Source of the DNA: an uncultured bacterium
Lineage (GTDB): Bacteria; Patescibacteriota; Minisyncoccia; Minisyncoccales; CAZLLZ01
Length of the DNA: 13,006 nucleotides
Direction: 5' to 3'
Assembly: GCA_965552115.1 (NCBI GenBank)
Contig: CBEVQU010000020.1
Span: forward strand, 1-13,006
The notes under the pieces were generated by a model. That model saw only the letters and a program-made list of their open reading frames with translations. It had not been told where the DNA came from and ran no database searches. How positions within the stretch are numbered: position 1 is the first letter of the stretch; each line of letters starts with the position of its first letter. Shown here in pieces: positions 1 to 13,006 of the stretch. Position numbers and translations under genes: made by a program.

Positions 1-371
1 TCTTAGCTAAAGATAAAAAGGAAAGTATTCTTTCTCTCTCTGTTAAATTTTTTGCTTCTTGTAAAATGACAAAAGTAGTGAAAAAAGATAAATTTTGGCC
101 AAAACCTACTGTAGATTCTGCTTTAATAAAATTGAAAGTCAAAAAAAACCTTCCTAAAATAAAAAAAGAAGTTTTCTTTAAAATTTTAAAGGCAGGTTTT
201 CTTCCAAAAAGAAAAAAGTTAACTTCTAATCTTTCGAAAAATTTAAAAATTAAAAAAGAAATTTTAGAAAAAATATTTAAAAAATTAAAAATCAAAAATT
301 TAGAAAGAGCAGAAAATCTTTCTTTAAATCAATGGATAAAACTATCAAAAGAAATTCAAAATTTCAAATAA
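1..371 (+). CDS. rsmA: 16S rRNA (adenine1518/1519-N6)-dimethyltransferase RsmA/KsgA, C-terminal part (5' end lies outside the window; the open frame starts at nt 3)
   Basis: The frame is open from nt 3 and reads ...KESILSLSVKFFASCKMTKVVKKDKFWPKPTVDSALIKL. The F-x-P-x-P-x-VDSA-(V/L) motif is the conserved C-terminal signature of KsgA/RsmA methyltransferases. The Lys-rich helical tail is typical of the family. The M at nt 66 in the ORF track is an internal residue, not the start. Confidence 0.75.
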   Translation, partial: LAKDKKESILSLSVKFFASCKMTKVVKKDKFWPKPTVDSALIKLKVKKNLPKIKKEVFFKILKAGFLPKRKKLTSNLSKNLKIKKEILEKIFKKLKIKNLERAENLSLNQWIKLSKEIQNFK

Positions 372-2863
372 AATTTATTCTTATCTTCTCTCTTTTTTTA
401 TTTTTTTTATTTTCTTTGCCGAAAGTAGCTTTCTCCCAAGAGTGTACTCAAGCAAACGAAGGAGAAACAAGACCTTGCAATGACTGCGGAATTCAAATTT
501 GTGAATGCGTCCAACAAAATGGAAATATTAGTTGCAGCTGGTCAGAATGTCAAGGAGAAGGAGTCTGTTGTACAGAAAATGGATTTTTCAGAGGAACAGA
601 TTACATATGTGACACCAAATATAAAACTCAATATAAATGTGAAGGTACGAATTGTGGAGATGATATTTTAAAAAGAAATTGTCATAAAAATAGGTATTGT
701 TCCGGAAATAGTGCAGATTGTACAGGAAACTGGTCAAGTTGGATTTGTGGATCACCTTCCCTTTTTGAAGATTGTGAAAGTTGGCAAAAATGTAAAGATG
801 GGACAGAATGGACAGATACTCAAGATCAAGTTTGCCAATGCGAAGGAGAATGTTTAGACAAACCTGAAAATCCCAGATATTATTCCAATCCTAACTTTTC
901 CGATGTTCCAGAAAAAAACTTAGGAAATGAAAATCTCTTTCTACCAATAAAATTAGATTGGGACGATATCCCAGGATGGAGAAAAAAAGGAGGGCCGACT
1001 TCTTATGTAATTGAAATAGAAAATACAACCAAAAATACTTTCTCGCAAACTCTCACTAAGTCTGAATTTATACCTCCTGAACCATGTCTTTTAAAATCAG
1101 GGGAAAAACATATCTGGCGAGTAAAAGGGTGTTGTAATTCAGATGGAACAAATTGTGGAACAGAAAGCGAATGGACATTTACTACAAACTTAGCTCCTGA
1201 GCCTTATGCCCCTAAAGATCCAGATTGGGCCGGTCCGCAAGAAAAAAAAGAAGAAACTCTTTCTACCGAATTAAAATGGTGTAAAACCGAAAATGAAGAT
1301 TTTTACGAGCCTTTACAGGATGGCTATTTCCCTAGAATTTACAAAATCTTGATTTTTCAAGAAGGAGAATGCCATCCCTTTCAAAAACAAGGTGAGGAGT
1401 GTTTACCTTTCCAACTCACCAACAATCTCTCTCCAGGACTACTTTCACCAGAGCCTGTCTTTTCGAATAAAGATTATCCTTATTTTACAAAAGATACTTC
1501 TTATAGTTGGAAAGTTTCTGCATGTAAAGATCTAGCGGGGATAGAATGTACACCTTATAGTCAAGAATGGAAATTTTCCTTAAAAGAAGAAATTATCATT
1601 AAAACTCCTTCTCTTCTTTCCCCTCCAAATGATTTCCATGGAAAACACCCTGTTGGGCTACCTGTTTCTTTAAATTGGACAGAGCCTTTTGGTGCAAGAT
1701 CTTTTGAAGTTGAAATATACGAAAATAATCAAAGAATTCATCGGAAAATAGTTTTCGCTCCACCTCTTATTTTAGATTCTCCTACTCTTTCTTTAAATAC
1801 TTTATATAAATGGAGAGTTAGAAGTTGCTGGGACGAAGAAGGAGAAAATTGCGAACCGGACTGGTCGGGATTTTATTTTTTTAAAACTACCGGAGAACCT
1901 CCTATTCTTTTAAACCCAGCGAATAACACCTCTTTACATCTTCCTATCGAATTTAAATGGAGTGAGGTACCAGGAGTGAACTCATATGTCTTTGAAGTTT
2001 TAAAAAACGGAGAAACAATTGTAAATAAAATCTCTTCCGAGCCTCTTCTTTTTTTAACTTATCCTGAGATAAAACAAGGAATATCTTATCTGTGGCACGT
2101 AAGATCTTGTGCTAAACCATTAGGAAAAATCTGTGGTTCCTGGAGTTCTACTTTTCAATTCACTGTTTCACGACTTCCCCCTCCAACTCTCTCTCTTCCA
2201 AAAGATAAAGATAATATTCCACTCTTCCAAACTCCTTTTTTGCTAAAATGGCAGCCTCTTTCTGGAATAAAATTCTATAAATACAGAGTGATTTTTCTGA
2301 AAAAAGATGAAGCGGAAAAAAATGAAGAATGCAAAACAGGAAAAGAAATTGAAGGAATTACTAAGAATTTCTCTGTTTATCTTCCTTTAAAATGTTTGGG
2401 AGAATATGAATGGCAAGTAGTGGGATGTTTTGATGAAAAATGCACCGAAATAGGAGATTGGAGTAAAAAACAGACTTTTTCCATAACTCAAAAAATCACT
2501 TCTTCAGAAAAAAGAGGACTAGTTCCTTGTAATCTTCCTTATGACATTCCAGACACACCATGGGATGAAAGGGAAAAATGTGAAATTAAACATCTTTTTA
2601 TTTTAATAAATAACATTTTAAACTTTCTCCTTTGGAAAATAGCTCCTATTGTGATAATATTATTACTAGGAACCTCTGGTCTTCTATTCTACTTCGCTTC
2701 TCTCTCTGGAGGAAATGTGGAACTTATTTATAGAATAAAGAAATGGTGGAAAGTAATTATAATCGGGTATATTCTCATTTTTGGAAGTTGGTTAATAGTA
2801 AGTTATACTCTGCTTCTTTTCGGATATAGAGTAGGGATTTTCGGAGAATGGTGGAAAATTTAG
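332..2863 (+). CDS. Large secreted/surface protein of 843 aa. It has a signal peptide, a Cys-rich module of about 140 aa, five FN3-like repeats each with a conserved Cys pair, and a C-terminal two-helix pilin-like (VirB2/TrbC-like) membrane hairpin. Putative T4SS-associated adhesin.
   Basis: The N terminus MDKTIKRNSKFQIKFILIFSLFLFFLFSLPKVAFS|QE has the n-, h- and c-regions of a signal peptide. About 21 Cys fall in residues 37-175. Five repeats each begin P-x-L-x-P...(L/F)xW and end Y-x-W-(R/K/H/Q)-V-x-x-C...C...W-(S/K)...F-(T/S). The last 90 aa (nt 2591-2863) carry two hydrophobic helices separated by a charged loop. The ORF is long, uninterrupted and overlaps the rsmA 3' end by 40 nt. Confidence 0.8.
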   Translation: MDKTIKRNSKFQIKFILIFSLFLFFLFSLPKVAFSQECTQANEGETRPCNDCGIQICECVQQNGNISCSWSECQGEGVCCTENGFFRGTDYICDTKYKTQYKCEGTNCGDDILKRNCHKNRYCSGNSADCTGNWSSWICGSPSLFEDCESWQKCKDGTEWTDTQDQVCQCEGECLDKPENPRYYSNPNFSDVPEKNLGNENLFLPIKLDWDDIPGWRKKGGPTSYVIEIENTTKNTFSQTLTKSEFIPPEPCLLKSGEKHIWRVKGCCNSDGTNCGTESEWTFTTNLAPEPYAPKDPDWAGPQEKKEETLSTELKWCKTENEDFYEPLQDGYFPRIYKILIFQEGECHPFQKQGEECLPFQLTNNLSPGLLSPEPVFSNKDYPYFTKDTSYSWKVSACKDLAGIECTPYSQEWKFSLKEEIIIKTPSLLSPPNDFHGKHPVGLPVSLNWTEPFGARSFEVEIYENNQRIHRKIVFAPPLILDSPTLSLNTLYKWRVRSCWDEEGENCEPDWSGFYFFKTTGEPPILLNPANNTSLHLPIEFKWSEVPGVNSYVFEVLKNGETIVNKISSEPLLFLTYPEIKQGISYLWHVRSCAKPLGKICGSWSSTFQFTVSRLPPPTLSLPKDKDNIPLFQTPFLLKWQPLSGIKFYKYRVIFLKKDEAEKNEECKTGKEIEGITKNFSVYLPLKCLGEYEWQVVGCFDEKCTEIGDWSKKQTFSITQKITSSEKRGLVPCNLPYDIPDTPWDEREKCEIKHLFILINNILNFLLWKIAPIVIILLLGTSGLLFYFASLSGGNVELIYRIKKWWKVIIIGYILIFGSWLIVSYTLLLFGYRVGIFGEWWKI

Positions 2864-2882
2864 CTTCTCTATATGAAATAAT

Positions 2883-3533
2883 ATGAAATATGAAAAAAAC
2901 CTTCCCTATTTAATTATCATCTTTATATCTATTTTTCTACTTCTCACAATTAGTTATTGGAGGTATTTAAAATTAGAAGAATTTTCAAAAAATTTTTTTT
3001 CTCCTAAAGAAATTTTTCAGAAAGAACTTGAAGGTATTAAAGAAAATTTTCCTCTACAAGAGGGAAATAACCAAGAGGTCAAATTTAAAAGCCCGGATGG
3101 AAAATTGGAACTAATTTATTCTTCAAGTTGGAAGGAATTACCTGGAAATACATTAAAAGGATTCTCTCCTTATTTTAAAAGAGATGGAGTTTCTCTACTT
3201 CTTTTTGCTCAAAAAATGAATTTTACTGAAGGAACCATTGCTTTTCTTCTTGTCCAGGAAATTGAAAAAAAGCCAAAAGAGACTATAAAAGATCTCATTA
3301 ACGAAATAGAAAAGGAAGCAGAAAAAAAGAAAGAAATTTCACTTAAAGAAAAAGAGGCAGAAGTAGAATTTCTCTTTTCTAAAGAAAAAGGAATACCTTG
3401 TTTCGCAAGAGAAAAAATTTTAGATGAAGGTAAAAAGTTTTTCTTAGTCGCTATTTTCTCTGCAGTAAAAGACTGGCCAACTTACGAAAAAGAAGCTCAA
3501 AAAATTCTTGATTCTGTTCGACTAATAGAGTAA
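2883..3533 (+). CDS. Single-pass membrane-anchored hypothetical protein of 216 aa. It has an N-terminal TM helix and an extracytoplasmic domain. It could be a VirB8-like component, but this is unverified.
   Basis: The N-terminal hydrophobic segment LPYLIIIFISIFLLLTISYW is followed by a Lys/Glu-rich soluble domain. The gene is tightly packed in the same orientation as its neighbours. No family motif is recognised. Confidence 0.6.
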   Translation: MKYEKNLPYLIIIFISIFLLLTISYWRYLKLEEFSKNFFSPKEIFQKELEGIKENFPLQEGNNQEVKFKSPDGKLELIYSSSWKELPGNTLKGFSPYFKRDGVSLLLFAQKMNFTEGTIAFLLVQEIEKKPKETIKDLINEIEKEAEKKKEISLKEKEAEVEFLFSKEKGIPCFAREKILDEGKKFFLVAIFSAVKDWPTYEKEAQKILDSVRLIE

Positions 3534-3573
3534 GTATTTCTTTTTTTTATTAAATGAGATAAAATAAAAAGAG

Positions 3574-4389
3574 ATGAGTCTAAACTTCTCTAAAAAATAC
3601 TTATTACTTTGGATAGTTTTGGTTTTGCTTTTTTTTCATTCTGAAACTTTGGCTCTAGAAGTTTCTTGGCCTACTTCCCCAGCAGGAACTAAATTAACAG
3701 ATGACTCAACTCTCCCCGAATTAATAAAATACCTCTATGAGTGGGGAATAAGTATCACAGGAATAATTCTTTTTCTTTCTCTTATCTTAGCTGGTTTTCA
3801 GTATCTGACTTCGGTGGGAGAACCTATAAAACTCCAAGAGGCTAAAGATAGAATCCAATCTTCTCTATTAGGAGTAATTTTTCTTTTAGCATCTTGGATA
3901 ATTCTTAATTTAATAAATCCTGCTCTTACTACCTTTAAAAATGTAGAATTCAATCCTTTAGAATCAGTGGAAGGAGAAATCACCTTAGATATGGAAGACT
4001 TACAAAAGCCTTGTGATTTTGCTTATTTATATGAAAAACCAAACTATGAAGGGGGAAAGAAAAGAATAGAGCCGGGGGAGAAAGTGGAATTAGGAGGTGG
4101 TGAGGAATATCTCTCTATTAAATCTTTTTATAGAGTTGACCAATGCACTCAAGAAGAAATTAATAAAGGAGATTGTATTAAAGAAAACGAAGAATATTAT
4201 AAAAAAGGGGGGGCTTGTACTGTTCAATTATATGCTAAAAAGAAAGTAGGGTGGTGGATTTTTGCTAAAGAGAAAGCTTGTGGAGATAAAATTTCTGAGA
4301 CTCAAGCTGTCCATCCTGACTTCTCAAGAATTTCAGACAGGCAAGTAACCTGTATAAGATTAATAAAACATGAACTCGCTGAATTTTAA
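3574..4389 (+). CDS. Pilin-like (TrbC/VirB2-like) membrane protein of 271 aa with a C-terminal Cys-rich extracellular domain
   Basis: The signal peptide is MSLNFSKKYLLLWIVLVLLFFHSETLA|LEV. The mature N-terminal region has two hydrophobic helices around a charged loop (GISITGIILFLSLILAGFQYLTSVGEPIKLQEAKDRIQSSLLGVIFLLASWIILNLINP), which is the VirB2/TrbC architecture. This region is homologous to the C-terminal hairpin of the 843-aa protein. The C-terminal 150 aa contain 8 Cys. Confidence 0.65.
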   Translation: MSLNFSKKYLLLWIVLVLLFFHSETLALEVSWPTSPAGTKLTDDSTLPELIKYLYEWGISITGIILFLSLILAGFQYLTSVGEPIKLQEAKDRIQSSLLGVIFLLASWIILNLINPALTTFKNVEFNPLESVEGEITLDMEDLQKPCDFAYLYEKPNYEGGKKRIEPGEKVELGGGEEYLSIKSFYRVDQCTQEEINKGDCIKENEEYYKKGGACTVQLYAKKKVGWWIFAKEKACGDKISETQAVHPDFSRISDRQVTCIRLIKHELAEF

Positions 4390-6628
4390 TAAATTACATA
4401 ATAAACTAGCCTTTTTAAAAACCCCTTCTTTCCTATTTTTTGTATTTCTTCTTTTAATTTTATTCATTCCAAAGCCTTCCTCTGCTTTTATCGGAACGGG
4501 AATTTTTGATTATTTTGATACTGCTTTAGAAGGTGTAGAAGAAATTGCAGGTCCTTTAGCAAAAAAAGTAATTAGTATATTCTTTGTGTACGTTATAGGA
4601 CTCATTTTTCTAGGAACTTCTACTGTTCTTCTAGAACAAACTATGAATCCTGAATGGTTATCTATTTATGGAAATCCTCTAGTAGAAAAGGGTTGGAATT
4701 TCACAGTAAATATAGCAAACATGTTTCTTGTATTAGGCTTTATTGTGATAGCTCTAGGGATTATTTTAGGAAGAAGAAGTCTTCAGATTAAAAAAACTCT
4801 TCCTAGATTAATTCTTGTGGCCTTTTTGATAAATTTTAGTTTACTTTTAGTAGGGGCTTTATTAGACATTTCAAATATTCTCTATAATACTTTTTGGAAA
4901 GGAAACGAAAATCTTCCATCGCAAGTAATAGATTTATTAATAGGCAAAGGAGGAAGTGTCCTAACAAATATGATTAGTTGGTTAGGGGCTTTAGCGCTAA
5001 GTTTTTCTATACCCTTCGTAGGTCCCTTTGCTCAAATAGCTCTCGTCTCATATCTAATAGTTGCTTTTCCTACTATGCTCGCGTGGTTTTTTCAAATAAT
5101 TTGCTTTTTTATTGTAGGAGGAATCTTCCTCTTGTACGGTATCTTGTTTGCTTTCAGAGTTTTTATTGTTCAATTATTAGCTATCATTTCTCCTCTAGCT
5201 TTTGTAGCTTGGATTTTTCCTCAAACAGAAAGATATTTCAAAACTTGGTTTAGAATGCTTTTACAATGGATATTTTTAGGTATTTTCCTTATTTTCTTTC
5301 TCTCTTTAGGATTAGCAGGAGCAGTAGCTCTTTCTGAGAAATTAGGAATAGGAGAAAATCCTACTCCTATTCCTGGCTTAAGTTGGTTTAAAGTACATGA
5401 TTATTTCGTGTATTATCTCTTTTTAACTATCTATTTAGGAATAGCAGCTGCTCTTGGAAGAAGAGTTACACCTATGTTTGTAGATCAAGCTTTAGGAATG
5501 TTTAATCAAGCGAAAGGAGCTTTTGTAGGAAGAATAGGAGGAGTTAGTAAATATATAAAAGAGAGGGCGAGAAGATGGGCAGCAGAAAAAGAAAAAGAAT
5601 TTGAAAGAAAGGAAACACCTAAAAAAACAACTGCCAAAATATGGAGGGGGATTAAAAAAGGACTAACAGGAACCATAAAATGGGCCCACAGAATAAGAGG
5701 AACTACAATTGAAGCTGGGTTAGAGAGAGATATTCAAGAGAAAAAAGAAAAATTAAAAGAAAGATTCGGTAATAATGTAGAACAAGCTAGAATTTTTTAT
5801 GGTAAATCTTGGAGAATTCTCCCGCCTACAGATAAAATAGCATTTACTCTTTACGCTGCCGAGGTTAAAGGAGGAAAGGGTTTAGTAAAAATGGGAGAAG
5901 AAGAAGCAAAAGAGGGAATTAATTTAATAGGGAAATCTTATTCAAAAAAACTCTCCGATGTTTTAAAGTATAATGTGAAACTAATGAAAGAAATGCTAGA
6001 AGATATTAGTTACGGAGGAGTATCATTAGATATTTTAGTGCCAGAAAGAGAAAAAGATAAAGATGTTATAGAGCTTATGAAATTAGGATACGAAAAAGCA
6101 GACGCTATTAAAAAAGCTGCTTTTAAAAAAGTTATAGATGACTTAAAATCTAAAGACATTGAGAAACTTACAGATGATACTCTTACTAATCCTGAATTTC
6201 AAGAAGTAACAGCTCTTTTTAAACCTTGGGGATTTATAAGAAAAATTGGAGAAGAATGGGGAGCAGACATTTTAGATAAAATCCAAGAAACTGCAGAAGA
6301 AATAGGATTAGAAAAAATTGCAAAAAGTAATCCTTCCTTTTTAAGAGCTCCTTACACCCCTGGAGGCTCTATTTTTTTAAGAAGGTGGTTTTTGGAAGGA
6401 AGAGAATTAACTCGAAATGATATAGAAGAATTAATCCGAAGAGCCAAAAGAGGAGACGATGAAGAGAAACCACCATCTTCACCGAAACCACCGAAACCCC
6501 CAAAACCACCGCCCAAACCTCCAAGAGGAAGAGCAGGAGTAGGAGTTCCAATTTACTGGACAAAAGAAAAAAAAGAAGAGGAAGAAGAGGAAGAAGAACC
6601 GAGAGGAAGAGTAGGAGTGGGAGTTTAA
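4370..6628 (+). CDS. VirB6/TrbL-like polytopic inner-membrane protein of 752 aa with a long hydrophilic C-terminal domain and a Pro-rich/poly-Glu tail
   Basis: A signal-like N terminus is followed by about 8 predicted TM helices in residues 60-370. There is then a roughly 380-aa charged cytoplasmic domain, ending in PPSSPKPPKPPKPPPKPPRGRAGVGV...EEEEEEEEPRGRVGVGV. This layout is that of Gram-positive VirB6-like proteins such as TcpH/PrgH. The start overlaps the upstream gene by 20 nt, and internal Met codons could be the true start. Confidence 0.55.
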   Translation: MNSLNFNKLHNKLAFLKTPSFLFFVFLLLILFIPKPSSAFIGTGIFDYFDTALEGVEEIAGPLAKKVISIFFVYVIGLIFLGTSTVLLEQTMNPEWLSIYGNPLVEKGWNFTVNIANMFLVLGFIVIALGIILGRRSLQIKKTLPRLILVAFLINFSLLLVGALLDISNILYNTFWKGNENLPSQVIDLLIGKGGSVLTNMISWLGALALSFSIPFVGPFAQIALVSYLIVAFPTMLAWFFQIICFFIVGGIFLLYGILFAFRVFIVQLLAIISPLAFVAWIFPQTERYFKTWFRMLLQWIFLGIFLIFFLSLGLAGAVALSEKLGIGENPTPIPGLSWFKVHDYFVYYLFLTIYLGIAAALGRRVTPMFVDQALGMFNQAKGAFVGRIGGVSKYIKERARRWAAEKEKEFERKETPKKTTAKIWRGIKKGLTGTIKWAHRIRGTTIEAGLERDIQEKKEKLKERFGNNVEQARIFYGKSWRILPPTDKIAFTLYAAEVKGGKGLVKMGEEEAKEGINLIGKSYSKKLSDVLKYNVKLMKEMLEDISYGGVSLDILVPEREKDKDVIELMKLGYEKADAIKKAAFKKVIDDLKSKDIEKLTDDTLTNPEFQEVTALFKPWGFIRKIGEEWGADILDKIQETAEEIGLEKIAKSNPSFLRAPYTPGGSIFLRRWFLEGRELTRNDIEELIRRAKRGDDEEKPPSSPKPPKPPKPPPKPPRGRAGVGVPIYWTKEKKEEEEEEEEPRGRVGVGV
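6476..6625 (+). repeat. Low-complexity coding repeats at the 3' end of the VirB6-like gene. They comprise a 9-nt periodic (ccaccgaaa)n Pro-Pro-Lys tract, a (gaagag)n poly-Glu tract, and a 27-nt imperfect direct repeat (6521-6547 and 6599-6625, 24 of 27 identical).
   Basis: These can be read directly in the sequence: ccaagaggaagagcaggagtaggagtt versus ccgagaggaagagtaggagtgggagtt. They encode RGRAGVGV and RGRVGVGV. Confidence 0.7.
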
Positions 6629-6639
6629 AAGAAAAAAGA

Positions 6640-6656
6640 AGAGATAGAACATCTCT
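6640..6656. terminator. Weak candidate bidirectional hairpin between two convergent genes: stem agagat / atctct with loop agaac
   Basis: A 6-bp inverted repeat lies at 6640-6645 and 6651-6656, between the VirB6-like stop (6628) and the SPFH stop (6670). On the minus strand it is followed by a U-rich run (complement of aaaagaaaaaagaa at 6627-6639). The stem has only 2 GC pairs, so it is weak. Confidence 0.25.
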
Positions 6657-6669
6657 CCTGAAGATTTAT

Positions 6670-7860
6670 TTATTCTTTTAGTTTCTCTTTGATTTCTTCC
6701 ACTTCTTTTTGAAGTTTTGAAAGAGCTTCTTTAACTACTTTCCATTCTCTCTCTGAAAATCTTTCTGGTTCTTTACCAAAAACACCACGTAAAACTTCTT
6801 GTAGTCCAGGAATAGCTTGAACTGCAAGGGAAGCTGCTAGAGGACTCTTTTCTACTGCTTCACAAACTCTTACCAGTTCTCCAGTTCTTCCGAGTGCTTT
6901 TACTGTTTCATAGACTCTCTTTATTCTTTCTTTCTCAGCATCAGCTAAAGTTTCTATTCTCTCTTTTTCTCTCTCTGCTAAATATTTTTTCAATGTAGCC
7001 TCTCTATATTCTTTAGGTGGATTTATAGATCTTATTTCTATCTTTTTTAGTAAAATACCATATTCTTCCTCAAATTCTTTTAATATTTTTAATTTCTTCA
7101 ATCTTTTCTTTAACTCTTCAGCCATACTTTGAGGCTCTGAAATCCATCTCTCATAAGATTTCTGAGTGATAACATCTCTAGCTTCTGCATTACATCTTTG
7201 AATCACTGCTTCCAACCAATTTTGAATTCTAAACAAAGCTTTATAAGGATTGACTACTCTAATTGTATATAGAATCTCTATATTTAAAGGTAATCTATTA
7301 ATATCCTCTGCCTTCTCTATTTTACTATAGTAGACGTCTTCTTTTAGAAGAATATAATCTAAGACTTCCTTCTCATGATGAATAATCTTCCCATCTTCCT
7401 TTATTCCTGTCCAAGTAAAACCATAAATATATATATCTTTTATCGGCCAAAAACCATAGTATCTAAACCCTCCTAAAGGATGGCACTTTTCTTTGTATAT
7501 TTTAGCTCCAGGTGTCCCAAGAGGAACTTTTTTTCCATCTTTCATCGGAATTCCTTCTTTTACTACATTCCACTGTTCATCTAAAGTATATCCTTTCCAT
7601 TGAATTAGTATCTTTATCACTTGGTCTCCTTTTACTACCACCTTCGCTGTTCCTTCTTTTACAAAGGTAAAAAATAAATTGTCTTCTGCTAATCCAAAGT
7701 ATACCCAGGCAAAAAGCCCAATAGGAATGGTTACCCAAAACACTAGTAAAAAGAGTATTTTCCCTAGAGAAAAATCAAAAGCTTTCGAAAGTAGAGACCC
7801 AATATACAGAAGTACTTCTATTCCTACCCATTTTATTAAAATCTTTAAAGAACTAATCAT
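6670..7860 (-). CDS. SPFH/band-7 (stomatin/prohibitin/flotillin/HflK-C family) membrane protein of 396 aa
   Basis: N-terminal TM helices are followed by a core that fits the SPFH pattern (IEILYTIRVVNPYKALFRIQNWLEAVIQRCNAEARDVITQKS...). There is then a coiled-coil tail rich in AEREKERIETLADAEKERIKRV-type repeats, typical of flotillin/YqiK-like proteins. Confidence 0.55.
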   Translation of the reverse strand: MISSLKILIKWVGIEVLLYIGSLLSKAFDFSLGKILFLLVFWVTIPIGLFAWVYFGLAEDNLFFTFVKEGTAKVVVKGDQVIKILIQWKGYTLDEQWNVVKEGIPMKDGKKVPLGTPGAKIYKEKCHPLGGFRYYGFWPIKDIYIYGFTWTGIKEDGKIIHHEKEVLDYILLKEDVYYSKIEKAEDINRLPLNIEILYTIRVVNPYKALFRIQNWLEAVIQRCNAEARDVITQKSYERWISEPQSMAEELKKRLKKLKILKEFEEEYGILLKKIEIRSINPPKEYREATLKKYLAEREKERIETLADAEKERIKRVYETVKALGRTGELVRVCEAVEKSPLAASLAVQAIPGLQEVLRGVFGKEPERFSEREWKVVKEALSKLQKEVEEIKEKLKE

Positions 7861-7932
7861 ACTTTTAAAATACCACTTTATTAAAATTTGTCAACATTTT
7901 TCTCTTTTTCTTTTTTTTATATAATAAAACTA
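7861..7932. promoter_or_regulatory. Divergent AT-rich intergenic region. It probably holds promoters for the SPFH gene (minus strand) and the operon running from the small ORF through the PrgI-like gene to the VirB4-like genes (plus strand).
   Basis: This 72-bp non-coding gap lies between divergent starts. It contains TTGTCA at 7888-7893 and TATAAT at 7920-7925, but they are about 26 bp apart, which is not the canonical 17 bp. Promoter elements are therefore suggested but not cleanly resolved. Confidence 0.2.
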
Positions 7933-8328
7933 ATGTCAAAAGAATATTCAAAAGAAGAACTCTGGAAACTTTATAAAAATTTACCTGAAGAATTAAAAGA
8001 AGCTATTTTTTCTGAAAAAATAGCCGAAGATATTTATAGAATCTGTGAAAGATACGGAATTTCAGAGTGTGGCAAGCTTTCAAAAATTGTAGGTCATACA
8101 TTTTTAGGAATATTACCTCCCTCTGAAATTGAAGAAACTCTAAGAAAAGAGTTGTTACTTACTTCAGGGAAAGCAAAAAAAATTTCTAACGAAATTCATA
8201 GGTTTATTTTTTATCCTTTTAAAAAAGAGATTTCTTTGATCTATAGTAAAGAAATTGAGACCTTAAAAGAAGATACTAAAAAAGAAATTGAGAAAAAAAG
8301 AGATATTTATAGAGAACCTATAGAATAA
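7888..8328 (+). CDS. Hypothetical small cytoplasmic protein of 146 aa. An alternative start at the Met codon at 7933 would give 131 aa.
   Basis: This is an open reading frame with Lys/Glu-rich helical character and no TM segment. It is the first gene after the divergent intergenic region and is co-oriented with the VirB3/VirB4-like genes. No family is recognised. Confidence 0.5.
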   Translation: MSTFFSFSFFYIIKLMSKEYSKEELWKLYKNLPEELKEAIFSEKIAEDIYRICERYGISECGKLSKIVGHTFLGILPPSEIEETLRKELLLTSGKAKKISNEIHRFIFYPFKKEISLIYSKEIETLKEDTKKEIEKKRDIYREPIE

Positions 8329-8332
8329 TACA

Positions 8333-8740
8333 ATGGAATTTCAAGTGCCACAATTTATAGAAAGGGAACCTAAAATAATTGGGCCTTTTACTTTTAAGCA
8401 ATTTTTGTTTTTAGCAATTTGTGGAGGAATCTGTGCTATTTTCTATTTTATTTTTCCTAGATTCATTTTTTATGCTTTAACTGCTTTAGTAATGGGAGGA
8501 GCTATTGGATTAATGGTAGTTAAAATAGAAGGACAACCTATTCCAACACTTTTGAAAAATTTTTTCTTTTTTTCTACTTCTCCTAAGCTCTATTTATGGA
8601 AAAAGAAAGAGATTTCTCCTCCTATCATTAAAGAAGAAAGGAAGATAGAAAAAAAAGAAAAAGAAACTACTTTAAAACTGGGAGAAAAAAGCAGACTTAA
8701 AAATATATTTACTAAAGTTGAACTAAGCCAGAGAAAATGA
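8333..8740 (+). CDS. PrgI-family / VirB3-like small T4SS membrane protein of 135 aa
   Basis: The N terminus MEFQVPQFIEREPKIIGPFTFKQFLFLAICGG... matches the PrgI-family pattern (VP-x-x-I...K-I-x-GP(F/L)T-x-(R/K)Q) and is followed by two TM helices. It lies immediately upstream of the VirB4-like gene, preserving VirB3-VirB4 synteny. Its TGA stop overlaps the next ATG (ATGA), indicating translational coupling. Confidence 0.55.
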   Translation: MEFQVPQFIEREPKIIGPFTFKQFLFLAICGGICAIFYFIFPRFIFYALTALVMGGAIGLMVVKIEGQPIPTLLKNFFFFSTSPKLYLWKKKEISPPIIKEERKIEKKEKETTLKLGEKSRLKNIFTKVELSQRK

Positions 8741-9390
8741 GAAAAAAAATTCTTCCCTCAACTCAACAATTTCTAGAATATAAGCAAATTAAGGAAGGGA
8801 TAATTATTTTAAAAGACAATTCTTTAAGAGGGATTTTAATGGTTTCTTCTTTAAATTTTGCTTTAAAATCAGATGAAGAGCAAAAAGCTATTTTATACCA
8901 ATTCCAAGACTTTCTAAATTCTTTAGATTTTACTTGTCAAATTCTTGTTCAATCTAGAAGATTAAATATCACAGGTTATTTGGAGAAATTAGAAGATTTA
9001 GAAAAAGCTCAACAAAATGAGCTTTTAAAGCTTCAAACTAGAGAATATAGAAATTTTATTAAAGGACTTGTTGAAAAAGGAACTATTATGACAAAAAAAT
9101 TTTTTGTAATTGTCCCCTATTTTCTTTTAGAAGCTAAAGGAGTTATATCTCCTTTAGAAATACTAAAAGGGAAAGCAGAAGAAGAAATTTTAACTGAAGA
9201 AAAGTTTCAAAGGTATAAAGAACAACTTTGGCAAAGAATGGAATATGTTGCTTTAGGTTTAAGAAGATGTGGTTTGGAAGCTTTACCTTTAAATACAGCA
9301 GAAATTATTGAATTGCTTTGGGAATATCATCATCCAAAAGAAGCTGAATTTGGATATTATCCAGAATTACCTCCCGAAATCTTAAAATAA
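8737..9390 (+). CDS. VirB4/TrbE/PrgJ-family ATPase, N-terminal domain ORF of 217 aa, ending at an in-frame TAA
   Basis: ...GIIILKDNSLRGILMVSSLNFALKSDEEQKAILYQFQDFLNSLDFTCQILVQSRRLNI... fits the VirB4/TcpF/PrgJ N-terminal pattern (dG-s-l-x-il-x-v-x-g-x-N-x-x-L-x-seeE-x-x-x-i...fLnsL-x-x-x-x-Qi). It is in the same frame as the following ATPase ORF, separated from it only by TAA at 9388-9390. Confidence 0.6.
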   Translation: MRKKILPSTQQFLEYKQIKEGIIILKDNSLRGILMVSSLNFALKSDEEQKAILYQFQDFLNSLDFTCQILVQSRRLNITGYLEKLEDLEKAQQNELLKLQTREYRNFIKGLVEKGTIMTKKFFVIVPYFLLEAKGVISPLEILKGKAEEEILTEEKFQRYKEQLWQRMEYVALGLRRCGLEALPLNTAEIIELLWEYHHPKEAEFGYYPELPPEILK

Positions 9391-9393
9391 ATT

Positions 9394-11196
9394 ATGTTTA
9401 AAATTTTTAAAAAAAGAAAGAAAAAAGAATTAGAAAAAGAAAAATTATTTGAAGAAACAGTCTTGACTAGTAAAGATATTGTTGCTCCTCCATCTTTAGA
9501 AGTAAAGCCAAATTATTTAAAAATAGGTGAAAGATTAGCTAAAACTTTCTTTGTTTTCTCTTTTCCTAGATATTTAGGAATGGTTTGGACTTCCCCTTTA
9601 ATCAACTTGGATATCCCAATGGATATTTCTTTTTTTATTCATCCTCTTCCAACAGGAGAATTATTAAAGAAACTAAGAAAAAGAGTAACAGAACTCGAAG
9701 CTGAGATAGCAGAAAGAGAAGAAAAAGGACTTATAAGAGAGCCTGCTTTAGAGGTAGCTTATAGAGATTTAGAGCTTTTGAGAGAGAGGCTTCAAACTGC
9801 CCAAGAAAGAATGTTCAAATTAGGAGTTTATCTAACTGTCTATGCAGATACAGAAAAAGAAATGAGAGAATATGAGACAACTTTAAGGGAAATTTTTGAG
9901 GCAAGGTTAATTTATTTAAAACCTGCTCTTTATCAGCAAAAAGAAGGATTCATCTCTTGTCTGCCTTATGGACAAGATAAACTTTTAGTTCACACTACAA
10001 TGAATACAATGCCTCTCTCTTCTTGTTTTCCTTTTGTCTCTTTCGATTTAAGCTCAAATGAAGGAATATTGTATGGAATAAATTTACACAACAACTCTTT
10101 AGTTTTATTTGATAGATTTTCTTTAGAAAATGCTAATGAGGTTGTCTTTGGAGTCGCAGGAGGAGGAAAATCATATGCTATAAAGTTAGAAATTTTAAGA
10201 TATTTGATGGAAGGAGTAGATGTGATCGTAATTGACCCTGAAAATGAATATAAAACATTATGTGAAGCAGTAGGAGGGTCCTTTTTTAAAATCTCTCTTA
10301 CTTCTCCAAACCATATCAACCCTTTAGATCTACCTTCTCCAAGAGAAGACGAAGACCCAAAAGATGTCTTAAGATCAAATATCATAAATTTAGTTGGTCT
10401 TTTAAGAATAATGCTAGGAGGTCTAACTCCAGAAGAAGATGCTATTGTAGATAGAGCTTTAACTGAAACTTATGCAGCGAGAGATATCACTCCACAATCC
10501 GACCCTTCTACTTGGAAAGAGAACATTCCTCTTTTGGAAGATTTAGAATCTGTTTTAGAAACAATGGAAGGAGCTGAATCTTTAGTTAGAAGATTAAGGA
10601 AATTTACAAAAGGAACTTATGCTGATTTCTTTAACAACCCCACAAACATCTCAATGGATAAAAATTTTGTTGTCTTTGGAATTAGAGATATGGAAGAAGA
10701 ACTAAGACCAATGGCAATGTTTTTAATTATGAGATACATTTGGAATACTATAAGATCGAAACTTAAAAAAAGAATCTTAGTAGTGGACGAAGCCTGGTGG
10801 ATAATGAAATCAGAAGATGGAGCATCTTTTTTGTATGGAATATGTAAAAGAGCTAGGAAATATTGGCTTGGAGTAACAACTATTACCCAAGATGTAATAG
10901 ACTTTATGAAATCTGTCTATGGGCAACCTATTATTACAAACTCTGCCCTTTGTCTTCTTCTAAAACAAAGTCCTGCTACAATTGATATAGTCAAAAAAAC
11001 CTTTAATCTAACAGAAGAAGAAAAGTATATGCTTTTGGAAGCTGAAGTAGGAGAAGGTTTGTTTTTTGCTGGAAGAAAACACGTGGCTATAAAAGTTGTA
11101 GCTTCTTATACAGAAGATCAAATAATTACTACTTCCCCTGAAGAAATAATAAGAATTCGAAAAAGAAAAAAAGAATTAGAGGAAAATCTCCCTTAA
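9394..11196 (+). CDS. VirB4/TrbE/CagE-family T4SS ATPase, C-terminal ATPase portion of 600 aa
   Basis: Walker A is VVFGVAGGGKSYA. Walker B is ILVVDEAWWIM, and the hhhhDEAW form is a VirB4 hallmark. The LGVTTITQDVIDF motif is also present. Together with the upstream ORF the length is about 818 aa, typical for VirB4. Confidence 0.8.
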   Translation: MFKIFKKRKKKELEKEKLFEETVLTSKDIVAPPSLEVKPNYLKIGERLAKTFFVFSFPRYLGMVWTSPLINLDIPMDISFFIHPLPTGELLKKLRKRVTELEAEIAEREEKGLIREPALEVAYRDLELLRERLQTAQERMFKLGVYLTVYADTEKEMREYETTLREIFEARLIYLKPALYQQKEGFISCLPYGQDKLLVHTTMNTMPLSSCFPFVSFDLSSNEGILYGINLHNNSLVLFDRFSLENANEVVFGVAGGGKSYAIKLEILRYLMEGVDVIVIDPENEYKTLCEAVGGSFFKISLTSPNHINPLDLPSPREDEDPKDVLRSNIINLVGLLRIMLGGLTPEEDAIVDRALTETYAARDITPQSDPSTWKENIPLLEDLESVLETMEGAESLVRRLRKFTKGTYADFFNNPTNISMDKNFVVFGIRDMEEELRPMAMFLIMRYIWNTIRSKLKKRILVVDEAWWIMKSEDGASFLYGICKRARKYWLGVTTITQDVIDFMKSVYGQPIITNSALCLLLKQSPATIDIVKKTFNLTEEEKYMLLEAEVGEGLFFAGRKHVAIKVVASYTEDQIITTSPEEIIRIRKRKKELEENLP

Positions 11197-11651
11197 GGAT
11201 AAGGTTTTATCACCACTCTTCTTTTGGGTTCTCTCCCTACGCTTTGAGTAGTAACATCTCCCCTTTCTGCTAACTCTAAATGAATGATTCTTCTTTCATA
11301 AGGAGGCATAGGGGGTAAAATTTCCTCCTTTTTTGTTAAAGAAACTTTATCTGCTAAATTTTTAGCTAACTCTTTTAGATATTTTATTTTATTTTGTTTG
11401 TAATTGTTAATATCAACATCTATAAAAAAATGGTCTTTGATCTTTCTTTTCAAAATCGCTTTCAATAAATGCTGAATAGAAAATAAACTCTTTCCATTTT
11501 CTCCAATTAAAATTTGAGGCTCTTTTGATTCAACTTTTAAAAAAATAGTCTCTTGTTTTGGAGGAAGAAAAGTTATTTTTACAAAAGGATCTATAAAGTT
11601 AAAAAACTCATTTGTGATTTTTTTTATTTTTTCAAAATCTTCTTTGGTCAT
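11193..11651 (-). CDS. jag: Jag/KhpB RNA-binding protein with KH and R3H domains
   Basis: The KH-like segment ILIGENGKSLFSIQHLLKAIL carries the GxxG loop. The C-terminal R3H motif is ERRIIHLELAERGDVTTQSVGREPKRRVVIKP. The gene sits downstream of yidC as in the conserved operon. Confidence 0.8.
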   Translation of the reverse strand: MTKEDFEKIKKITNEFFNFIDPFVKITFLPPKQETIFLKVESKEPQILIGENGKSLFSIQHLLKAILKRKIKDHFFIDVDINNYKQNKIKYLKELAKNLADKVSLTKKEEILPPMPPYERRIIHLELAERGDVTTQSVGREPKRRVVIKPYP

Positions 11652-11660
11652 TTTCTTTTT

Positions 11661-12353
11661 TTATTTTGATAAAAGATAATATTGGAAAATGGTGAAAAAA
11701 GTGCTTGTTATCCAATATAAAGCGACAGCTGCCGGAATTTTTAAAAGAATAAGAAAGGTAAAAAAAGGAAAAAAATATAACATTTGTTTTTGAAAAACTT
11801 GAGAAATTTCTTTTTCTTTCTCTAAAGAAAACTGGGAAGTTTGTCTTGTTTGAAAATATTGAGAAATTCCAGCTATTAAAGCTAAAAAAATACTAGGCTT
11901 TGAAAGATCCAACAAACCTAAAAAAAGAGGAGGAATTTCCTTTATTTGAGGGACAAAAGAATATAAATTTATCATAGATTGAGGAGAAATACCTCCCCAA
12001 AAAACTTTTAAAAGAGCAATTAAAATAGGAAGTTGAATTAAGAGAGGTAAGCATCCTGAAAATGGATTAATTTTTTCTTTTTTATATAATTCCATTAAAG
12101 CTTTAGCTTGTTTTTCTTTTTGGTCTTTATATTTTTTCTGAATTTCTCTTATCTTTGGCTGAAGCTCTGACATTTTCTTTTGAGATATTAAAGATTTAAG
12201 AGTGATTGGATAGAGAATAATTTTTACTATTAAAGTCAAAGCAATAATTGAAATTCCTAGATCATGAGGAGGAAGAAAATAATAAATAATTATAAGTAAA
12301 TTAAAAAGAGGTTTATATAAAATTGTGTAAAATAAAAAGGTAAAAATCTCCAT
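11661..12353 (-). CDS. yidC: Membrane protein insertase YidC (short Gram-positive/CPR-type form, 230 aa)
   Basis: LQPKIREIQKKYKDQKEKQAKALMELYKKEKINPFSGCLPLLIQLPILIALLKVF matches the YidC/Oxa1 core (MQ-x-lqPe...iqeKYk......qEmm-x-LYk-e-x-gvNP-x-x-GClP-x-LiQmPi). The protein has multiple TM helices. Confidence 0.85.
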   Translation of the reverse strand: MEIFTFLFYTILYKPLFNLLIIIYYFLPPHDLGISIIALTLIVKIILYPITLKSLISQKKMSELQPKIREIQKKYKDQKEKQAKALMELYKKEKINPFSGCLPLLIQLPILIALLKVFWGGISPQSMINLYSFVPQIKEIPPLFLGLLDLSKPSIFLALIAGISQYFQTRQTSQFSLEKEKEISQVFQKQMLYFFPFFTFLILLKIPAAVALYWITSTFFTIFQYYLLSK

Positions 12354-12354
12354 A

Positions 12355-12564
12355 TTAAGGTAAATCTACCCCTCCTTTAGAAAAAGGGTGGCATCTTAAA
12401 ATTCTTTTCAAAATTAAAAAAACGGCCTTTCTTTTATTATATTTTTTCAAAGCTAAGATAGAATATTCAGAACAAGAAGGATAAAATCTGCAGTGTTTTC
12501 CTAAAAAAGGAGAAATAAATAACTGATATTTTCTTAAAATGGAAATTAAAAATTTATTTTTCAT
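12355..12564 (-). CDS. yidD: Membrane protein insertion efficiency factor YidD
   Basis: The sequence ISPFLGKHCRFYPSCSEYSILALKKYN...LKRILRCHPFSKGGVDLP carries the canonical YidD motifs (CRF-x-PSCS-x-Y, RCHP, GG-x-D-x-P). It lies between rnpA and yidC as expected. Confidence 0.9.
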   Translation of the reverse strand: MKNKFLISILRKYQLFISPFLGKHCRFYPSCSEYSILALKKYNKRKAVFLILKRILRCHPFSKGGVDLP

Positions 12565-12907
12565 TTTTAAAAATTTTCATTTTTCTAAAAAGGAACTCAA
12601 CCATCTTTTCTATTTCCTGATAATTTTTCTCCTCCAATCCAGGTAAAGCAATGAAAATTCCATCTATGCCTTTTTTTAAAAAAGGAATTTTTTTTCTCAC
12701 AATTTCTCTCAGTCTTCTTCTGACTTTATTTCGAACTGTCGCTTTTTTAGATACTTTTTGAGAAACTATAAAAGCAAACCGACAATCTTCATCCCCTCTC
12801 TGATTAAAGACTTTTAGGACTAAATAATCTTTTTTCGCTCCTTTCCCTTTCTTAAAAACCCTCTCGAAATCTTTTTTCTTTTTTAATCTATTCTTTTTAG
12901 GGAGCAT
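12554..12907 (-). CDS. rnpA: Ribonuclease P protein component RnpA
   Basis: The basic 117-aa protein carries the RNR-like motif VSKKATVRNKVRRRLRE. It follows rpmH on the same strand in the classic rpmH-rnpA arrangement. Confidence 0.85.
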   Translation of the reverse strand: MLPKKNRLKKKKDFERVFKKGKGAKKDYLVLKVFNQRGDEDCRFAFIVSQKVSKKATVRNKVRRRLREIVRKKIPFLKKGIDGIFIALPGLEEKNYQEIEKMVEFLFRKMKIFKNEK

Positions 12908-12911
12908 TTTT

Positions 12912-13006
12912 CTAGACTGTCAATCTTTTCCTCTTTTTTCTTCTCCTTCTAGAAAGAATTTTCCTTCCAGATTTTGTTTTTTGCCTTTTTCTAAAACCGT
13001 GTTTCT
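12912..13006 (-). CDS. rpmH: 50S ribosomal protein L34 (RpmH), C-terminal 30 codons plus stop. The N terminus lies beyond the window end.
   Basis: Minus-strand translation from the window edge gives KHGFRKRQKTKSGRKILSRRRRKKRKRLTV*, which is the conserved L34 C terminus (..THGFR.R..T..GR.VL..RR.KGR..LTV). The stop codon is at 12912-12914 (plus-strand cta). Confidence 0.85.
   Translation of the reverse strand, partial: KHGFRKRQKTKSGRKILSRRRRKKRKRLTV

Follow-up and report, generated by a model that had tools for sequence, protein, structure and literature searches.

Paralogous pilin-like hairpins in swapped domain order in two proteins of a patescibacterial type IV secretion locus

We analyzed 13,006 nucleotides (nt) of DNA from an uncultured bacterium of the Patescibacteriota (assembly GCA_965552115.1, contig CBEVQU010000020.1, positions 1 to 13,006), referred to below as the window. 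The window carries a cluster of type IV secretion system (T4SS) genes, upstream of which lie the genes for a protein of 843 amino acids (aa), hereafter the giant, and for a 271-aa protein. An earlier note on this DNA proposed that the end of the giant and the beginning of the 271-aa protein are paralogous, pilin-like two-helix hairpins. Sequence and profile comparisons confirmed that the two hairpins are paralogous copies of the T4SS_pilin module (PF18895) and represent two subtypes of it. We consider it probable, at roughly 60%, that both proteins are modular pilins of the T4SS, in which a conserved hairpin for membrane insertion and polymerization is joined to a less conserved surface domain. 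The bulky giant would most plausibly be a low-copy subunit.

The pilin module stands at opposite ends of the two proteins

The open reading frames (ORFs) of the giant (332-2863) and of the 271-aa protein (3574-4389) lie on the + strand, and between them is an ORF for a 216-aa protein with one N-terminal transmembrane (TM) segment (2883-3533, +). The interval singled out by the earlier note, 2591-3936, runs from residue 754 of the giant to its end (residue 843), across the entire 216-aa gene and on to residue 121 of the 271-aa protein. The two peptides quoted there were located at residues ~763-823 of the giant (LNFLLWK...GSWLIV) and at residues ~51-111 of the 271-aa protein (IKYLYEW...ASWIIL).

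The giant begins with a Sec-type signal peptide (residues 1-35), followed by a Cys-rich region with 21 Cys (residues 36-175), a stretch of repeats (about 200-715) and a C-terminal pilin module. The module (residues 728-843; 2513-2860, +) was delimited by PF18895, by the predicted hairpin and by BLASTP matches to small pilins. It opens with a GLVPC(733)...C(750)xxxH(754) motif, continues through the hairpin and ends in a conserved tail, GYxVGIFGxWWxI. Hydropathy showed exactly three hydrophobic segments, the signal peptide and the two TM helices. AlphaFold2 modeled the last 125 aa as a helix-turn-helix (mean predicted local distance difference test score, pLDDT, 80; hairpin ~90), in which helix 1 covers residues 752-791 (nt 2585-2704) and helix 2 residues 796-829 (nt 2717-2818), with YRIKKWWK as the basic loop region.

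The repeats in the ectodomain of the giant number five, are ~100 aa long, and each ends in W-x-[VF]-x-x-C...C...W, with signatures at residues 262, 393, 494, 588 and 694. They show solely as this motif pattern, since a BLAST comparison of the giant with itself gave no significant repeat matches. Scans of Pfam, NCBIfam and PHROGs returned nothing usable for the ectodomain; the one pointer to a beta-sandwich was a sub-threshold match to the immunoglobulin (Ig) domain PF25788. The assignment of the ectodomain to fibronectin type III (FN3) is a plausible guess.

The 271-aa protein has the reverse layout: a signal peptide (residues 1-28), a WPxSPxGT N-terminus, the hairpin, a linker and a C-terminal domain. 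Its hydropathy profile likewise contained three hydrophobic segments only, the signal peptide and two TM helices. The AlphaFold2 model (mean pLDDT 84, hairpin about 90) was again a helix-turn-helix, so that the structure prediction recommended by the earlier note gave the same result for both hairpins. Helix 1 covers residues 47-79 (nt 3712-3810), the loop is GEPIKLQEAKDR, and helix 2 covers residues 84-113 (nt 3823-3912); the basic residues lie in the loop region KLQEAKDR. The C-terminal domain (residues ~146-271, nt 4009-4386) is hypervariable and beta-gamma-crystallin-like. The swapped domain order is real, and each of the two arrangements is a conserved family.

A sortase or exosortase anchor, which the earlier note had named as a refuting outcome, was considered and ruled out. 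We found neither an LPxTG motif nor a C-terminal signal of the PEP-CTERM type, and both proteins have two helices where such a signal has one; at the C-terminus of the giant the two helices are followed by the conserved aromatic tail. The only PEP tripeptides of the giant, at residues 249, 289 and 373, are well away from its C-terminus.

Profile comparisons carry the homology of the two hairpins

The earlier note described the two hairpins as aligning convincingly. This did not hold for the pair taken by itself: pairwise BLASTP gave 26% identity and an E value of 0.095, and Smith-Waterman scores compared with composition-preserving and segment-preserving shuffles gave z values of 2.7 and 2.2, respectively (P 0.02-0.04). 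Because this pairwise significance is marginal, the claim of homology is carried by profiles, and at the family level the description stood. We aligned the hairpin-bearing parts of the 271-aa family (A1) and of the giant family (A2) and compared the two alignments with hhalign. The probability was 95.9% (E 5.9e-9) over 51 columns, which begin midway along helix 1 and extend across the loop into helix 2. A control with A2 reversed gave 2.5%, and VirB2, a genuine but different family of TM hairpins, gave 0.6-5.8%, so the signal is not a generic effect of TM hairpins.

Hidden Markov models (HMMs) built without the window's own sequences led to the same conclusion. The model of the 271-aa family matched the giant at residues 757-823 (P 9e-5), and the model of the giant family matched the 271-aa protein at residues 60-114 (P 5e-8). 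In addition, a combined alignment of both pilin subtypes was collinear across the whole hairpin.

Both families also matched PF18895. The 271-aa protein scored 31.7 bits, above the Pfam cut-off of 26.6 bits (E 1.6e-7); the match pairs its residues 45-114 with positions 3-71 of the 71-position profile, and 32 of its 34 listed homologues carry a precomputed PF18895 annotation. The giant scored 20.6 bits (E 4.8e-4) over residues 758-825, and 24.9 bits when its C-terminal 125 aa were searched alone, both below that cut-off. Among the C-termini of the giant family, 25 of 33 matched PF18895 at E<=0.01, the best at 5.4e-8.

Small pilins link the two subtypes

Related loci encode free-standing small PF18895 pilins of 127-197 aa. 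Four of these share, after the signal peptide, the motif (G)LVPCG...C-x-F-C-(H/D)-F, followed by the hairpin and a Trp-rich tail. The last ~115 residues of the giant (GLVPC733...C750-x3-H754, hairpin, GYRVGIFGEWWKI) matched the small LVPCG pilins over the whole module (BLASTP 1e-14 to 1e-17), and the LVPCG pilins so matched carry PF18895. Because the match spans the entire module, the giant is a complete LVPCG-type pilin with an N-terminal ectodomain of ~715 aa. The N-terminal module of the 271-aa protein (WPxSPxGT...YLYEWGI...AGFQYLTSxG...SWLILN) matched another free small pilin of 137 aa (L004 19233-19646) with a BLASTP E value of 4e-22, which makes the 271-aa protein a second pilin subtype with a C-terminal addition. 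The same N-module matched the LVPCG-type pilins at 6e-9 to 7e-6. The small pilins thus bridge the two hairpins by BLASTP.

We then ran a hairpin-core profile against 1.84 billion cluster representatives (50%-identity clusters). With a limit of E<=1e-3 it matched 42,480 proteins, of which 1,900 also passed E<=1e-10. The best 150 matches, a list biased to the two families that built the profile, included 52 giants and 12 medium proteins whose module is C-terminal, 12 small pilins, 27 proteins with an N-terminal module and a C-terminal extension, and 46 proteins with at least three modules. Both domain orders are common by these architecture counts.

Several other arrangements were seen outside the window. 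Reverse giants, in which an N-terminal pilin module is followed by extensions of 300-1400 aa, occur in loci L060-L081 (e.g. L061, L062, L070 and L081), where they often form arrays of two to five consecutive genes; the 1454-aa ORF at L061 2-4363, for instance, has its pilin module at residues 64-131. Two C-module giants stand in tandem in L033. There are also "polypilins" with 6-16 tandem hairpin modules per polypeptide (P0074, P0075, P0081, P0082, P0103 and P0183), of which P0074 (552 aa) has six copies spaced by about 85 aa and P0183 (1775 aa) has 14-16.

The two genes are paired in related T4SS loci

We compared five syntenic metagenomic loci (L001-L005). Their gene order was rsmA (not called in L005), a giant of 778-909 aa, a 204-216-aa gene, a VirB6-like gene, PrgI, TrsD and VirB4, and jag, yidC, yidD and rnpA came next where the loci reach far enough (with dnaA as well in L004). 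The position of the VirB6-like gene was identical in all five, and in four of them a medium PF18895 pilin (248-406 aa) stood directly before it. Homologous genes of ~204-214 aa occupied the position of the 216-aa gene in L001, L002 and L005, and L003 has a few unrelated genes between the giant and the 216-aa gene.

A wider set of 79 loci that carry a pilin of the 271-aa type was collected from GTDB species representatives with the alignment of the 271-aa family. In 32 of the 79, a large ORF with the C-terminal module precedes the pilin gene on the same strand at a distance of at most 3.5 kb; where complete, these upstream giants are 760-1482 aa long. The median gap between giant and medium pilin in these 32 loci was 793 nt, which fits the size of the intervening gene. 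The pairing that the earlier note had suggested looking for in homologous loci therefore recurs in both sets.

Pilin arrays of T4SS loci have been defined as divergent pilins in tandem or separated by one non-pilin gene (PMC12102498). The window has this makeup, with at least two divergent pilin genes, the 216-aa gene as the non-pilin gene parting them, and virB4 nearby together with TrsD, PrgI and VirB6.

Comparison with known pilins

VirB2-like pilin arrays in Patescibacterial T4SS loci were described between 2023 and 2025 (Wang et al. 2023, PMC10633639; Quinonero-Coronel et al. 2025, PMC12102498; review, PMC12857230). In S. epibionticum, neither the pilin array nor the T4SS is dispensable (PMC10633639; PMC12857230), and the 2025 review raises a possible pilus in Patescibacterial monoderms (PMC12857230). 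Like the published arrays, the pair in the window belongs to PF18895, lies in a locus near rnpA/ksgA/dnaA and has no relaxase. The published descriptions treat these pilins as small, whereas the modules in the window are fused to a 715-aa N-terminal ectodomain or to a C-terminal beta-gamma-crystallin-like domain. One survey detected no adhesins and treated VirB2 as a small protein (PMC12102498). The domain of the giant family differs from published Patescibacterial pilins in sitting just under the Pfam threshold, where it is easily missed, and surveys that depend on HMM thresholds undercount giants for this reason. In the Patescibacterial T4SS literature that we searched, neither the fusion of the pilin to large surface domains in either orientation nor the conserved giant/medium pair at the operon head is stated. 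Neither the family nor the system to which the pair in the window belongs is new, and its modular architecture is a modest, useful extension of them.

The earlier note had assigned the hairpins the topology of VirB2/TrbC pilins. As a T4SS pilin type the assignment stood, given PF18895 and a locus with VirB6, VirB3, TrsD and VirB4, but membership in PF04956 (TrbC/VirB2) was not supported, and the likeness to that family is a resemblance. The Pfam scan of the window proteins showed no match to this family at E<=0.1. In hhalign comparisons with 120 genuine VirB2 proteins, all of them members of PF04956 and together a narrow, Rhizobiales-centred set of limited sensitivity, alignments A4, A1 and A2 reached probabilities of 5.8%, 0.6% and 4.1%, respectively, over helix 1 only. 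The local alignment was in register over the amphipathic stretch before the TM segment and helix 1 (MVNNICTFILGPFG vs LINNILNFLLWKIAP), and it was not significant. Profiles of the two hairpin alignments, searched against PDB sequences, yielded noise only (rhodopsin transducer, MagT1 and similar, E>0.2). Fold searches returned generic helical hairpins only, with no solved pilin among the best 50-60 matches listed per search.

The likeness to VirB2/TrbC and TraA lies in the signal peptide, the ~70-aa two-helix hairpin with a short basic loop, and the VirB3, VirB4 and VirB6 homologues alongside. VirB2/TraA pilins have their two termini together on the outer side (PMC5018250), and the same is predicted for the window pilins. 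VirB2/TraA systems are diderm, whereas the host here is monoderm and its pilins have no significant sequence or profile similarity to them; large appended domains are not known for VirB2/TraA.

A second monoderm system of the MPF-FATA type, the Mycoplasma integrative and conjugative element (ICE), includes the Mbov_0395 family pilin-like protein (NCBIfam NF045849). The hairpin of the 271-aa protein matched this family at residues 51-115 with an E value of 1.4e-5; at 24.7 bits the match falls short of the 40-bit cut-off, and the giant had no match. The VirB4 relative of this element (VirB4_plasma) matched the VirB4 in the window.

To our knowledge, modular pilins have so far been known only from type 4 filaments. 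Like the window pilins, the PilB and PilC pilins of Streptococcus sanguinis combine a conserved polymerization module with a grafted functional module; the grafted modules are adhesive, and the pilins that carry them are used as minor subunits that functionalize the filament (PMC8179133, PMC9934059). Type 4 pilins differ in having a single N-terminal helix, processing by a prepilin peptidase and C-terminal grafts only, and they belong to an unrelated filament superfamily. They are the closest functional analogy to the window pilins, by way of analogy and not homology.

How the proposed modular pilins may work

What follows on the polymerization, stoichiometry and adhesion of the window pilins is what we infer. 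The Sec pathway would export the N-terminus, and the signal peptide would be cleaved. The positive-inside rule and the biology of VirB2/TraA lead us to expect that the inserted hairpin has its short basic loop on the cytoplasmic side and its two ends outside, which would make either graft extracellular. The VirB4/TrsD/VirB3/VirB6 machinery would then extract the hairpins into a VirB2-like filament, or hold them beside the machine. Pilins of the F pilus expose both their N- and their C-terminus on its outside and have the loop in the lumen; while they sit in the membrane, the loop is in the cytoplasm (PMC5018250). Since both pilin termini face outward in such a filament, N- and C-terminal grafts would be geometrically equivalent, and the swapped order would be tolerated.

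The giant may be a low-copy subunit at the tip, at the base or sparsely along the filament, or a machine-associated adhesin, in each case for adhesion to a host or prey. Within the filament, pilins of the TraA type have ~72% of their surface buried (PMC5018250), and for this reason a 75-kDa graft on every subunit seems unlikely and a low copy number more plausible. The bulk of the filament may be formed by the medium pilins, the small pilins or both. The earlier note had suggested that the 271-aa protein is the major pilin and the giant a tip adhesin, which would be one way of filling these roles; the small free pilins (127-197 aa) in related genomes are at least equally good candidates for the major subunit.

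Several observations weigh against the two proteins being modular pilins. No pilus has been seen for this lineage, and the sequence and fold searches (PDB profiles, hhalign and fold searches) gave no link to solved VirB2 or TraA pilins. The giant's own PF18895 score is below the Pfam cut-off. A 715-aa graft would make a steric demand on any pilin that packs as tightly as TraA. Scans of the window with Pfam and NCBIfam found no relaxase or coupling protein. Finally, L004 has no medium pilin at this position, and 13 GTDB loci with enough upstream sequence have no giant; the pairing of giant and medium pilin is therefore common and not obligatory.

A more specific form of the proposal is that the giant family, whose members range from 760 to >1400 aa and keep their place at the operon head in Paceibacteria-type genomes, is the "missing adhesin" of the T4SS, joined to a VirB2-like filament by its C-terminal module, probably at the tip or sparsely, and recognizing hosts through a variable, Cys-rich, Ig-like ectodomain, with the 271-aa family decorating the shaft by means of its hypervariable crystallin-like domain. 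We regard this form as tentative and rather doubtful. If it were true, the same modular design would have evolved independently in T4SS pili, with N- and C-terminal grafts alike.

The main alternative is that the hairpin is a membrane anchor only, a pilin-derived two-helix "staple" for surface display that neither polymerizes nor depends on the T4SS. In favor of this alternative, the module carries very diverse extensions across the 42,480 clusters (e.g. N-modules with domains of 300-1400 aa), no pilus has been observed, and fold searches give a generic hairpin only. Conservation within the two families argues the other way. In the giant family, for which 39 full-length homologues were collected (554-1010 aa, one of them already named "pilin" by NCBI), mean identity was 49% in the pilin module, 39% in the ectodomain and 30% in the Cys-rich tip, and C733, C750, H754 and W820 were invariant. 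In the 271-aa family (34 homologues collected), mean identity was 65% in the hairpin and 21% in the C-terminal domain. In both families this is the inverse of the pattern expected of a simple anchor. That the hairpins are the best-conserved parts and hold invariant or near-invariant residues in and around them argues for specific protein contacts. Furthermore, both genes keep fixed positions directly upstream of the VirB6-like gene across many genomes, and in S. epibionticum the genes of the pilin array, like the T4SS, are essential (PMC10633639). An anchor alone is thus unlikely.

It is improbable that the two proteins are instead substrates of the T4SS, either effectors or adhesins, with the hairpin as a recognition or targeting signal. 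The lack of a relaxase or coupling protein in the window and the co-option for non-conjugative functions suggested in the literature (PMC12102498; PMC10633639) would suit this idea, and the hairpin with its conserved WW tail could be a docking element. Known T4SS substrates, however, are recognized in the cytoplasm via coupling proteins, whereas the window pilins have Sec signal peptides and a pilin-type topology, and their family-level identity with small free pilins fits structural subunits better. A chance or compositional resemblance between unrelated TM hairpins, to which the marginal BLASTP and shuffle values would point, is effectively refuted by the hhalign result and its controls, the reciprocal leave-self-out matches, the shared Pfam family and the bridging small pilins.

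If the two proteins are modular pilins, the ectodomain is expected on the filament and its display should depend on VirB4. In the only system where this has been tested, the epibiotic lifestyle requires the Patescibacterial T4SS with its pilin array, a poorly understood machine. If it is true that pilin modules routinely carry large, variable extracellular domains, these domains would be concrete candidates for host recognition.

Remaining genes of the locus

The window (G+C ~31%) is a chromosomal, origin-proximal T4SS locus of a Paceibacteria-type Patescibacterium. It begins with the 3' end of rsmA/ksgA (66-371, +), and jag, yidC, yidD and rnpA lie 3' of VirB4 on the - strand; rnpA, ksgA and dnaA are typical neighbours of virB4 in Paceibacteria T4SS loci (PMC12102498). 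The genes from rsmA through the VirB6-like gene are co-directional, with overlaps or with gaps of at most 40 nt. The giant gene overlaps rsmA by 40 nt and is followed by gaps of 19 nt and 40 nt, and the gene of the 271-aa pilin overlaps the VirB6-like gene by 20 nt.

The VirB6/TrbL-like protein (4370-6628, +) is a polytopic protein of 752 aa, which matched PF04610 (TrbL) below threshold (E 2e-4) and is presumed to be the assembly platform. Its long hydrophilic C-terminal half makes it an "extended VirB6". At the end of the tail (about 6380-6620) are a PPKPPKPPPKPP run, a stretch of poly-Glu and two copies of an RGR(A/V)GVGV motif. Downstream are the PrgI/VirB3-like gene (8333-8740, +; PF12666, 32.3 bits, above the Pfam cut-off), the 217-aa TrsD gene, similar to the VirB4 N-domain and identified by its TrsD match (8737-9390, +), and the gene of the 600-aa VirB4 ATPase (9394-11196, +; NCBIfam conju_CD1110 VirB4, 377 bits, above the cut-off). 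The stop codon of TrsD is 3 nt ahead of the start of VirB4, and the VirB4 N-domain-like part is a separate gene, a split reported as typical of Patescibacteria (PMC12102498).

A conserved 146-aa ORF precedes PrgI (7888-8328, +). Neither this ORF nor the likewise conserved 216-aa protein had a usable family or PDB match in Pfam, NCBIfam, PHROGs or the PDB; for the 216-aa protein a VirB8-like role is conceivable. In the middle of the T4SS cluster, on the opposite strand, is the gene of an SPFH/Band-7 (HflK-like) membrane protein (6670-7860, -). L002, L003 and L005 each have a Band-7 gene in the corresponding position, pointing to a conserved association with the T4SS machine.

Away from the T4SS cluster proper, ~9 kb 5' of the giant gene and beside the gene of the CCA-adding enzyme, a free small LVPCG pilin was found at a second conserved site. 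It lies at 1179-1652 in L002, 936-1319 in L003, 2697-3197 in L004 and 1542-2135 in L005.

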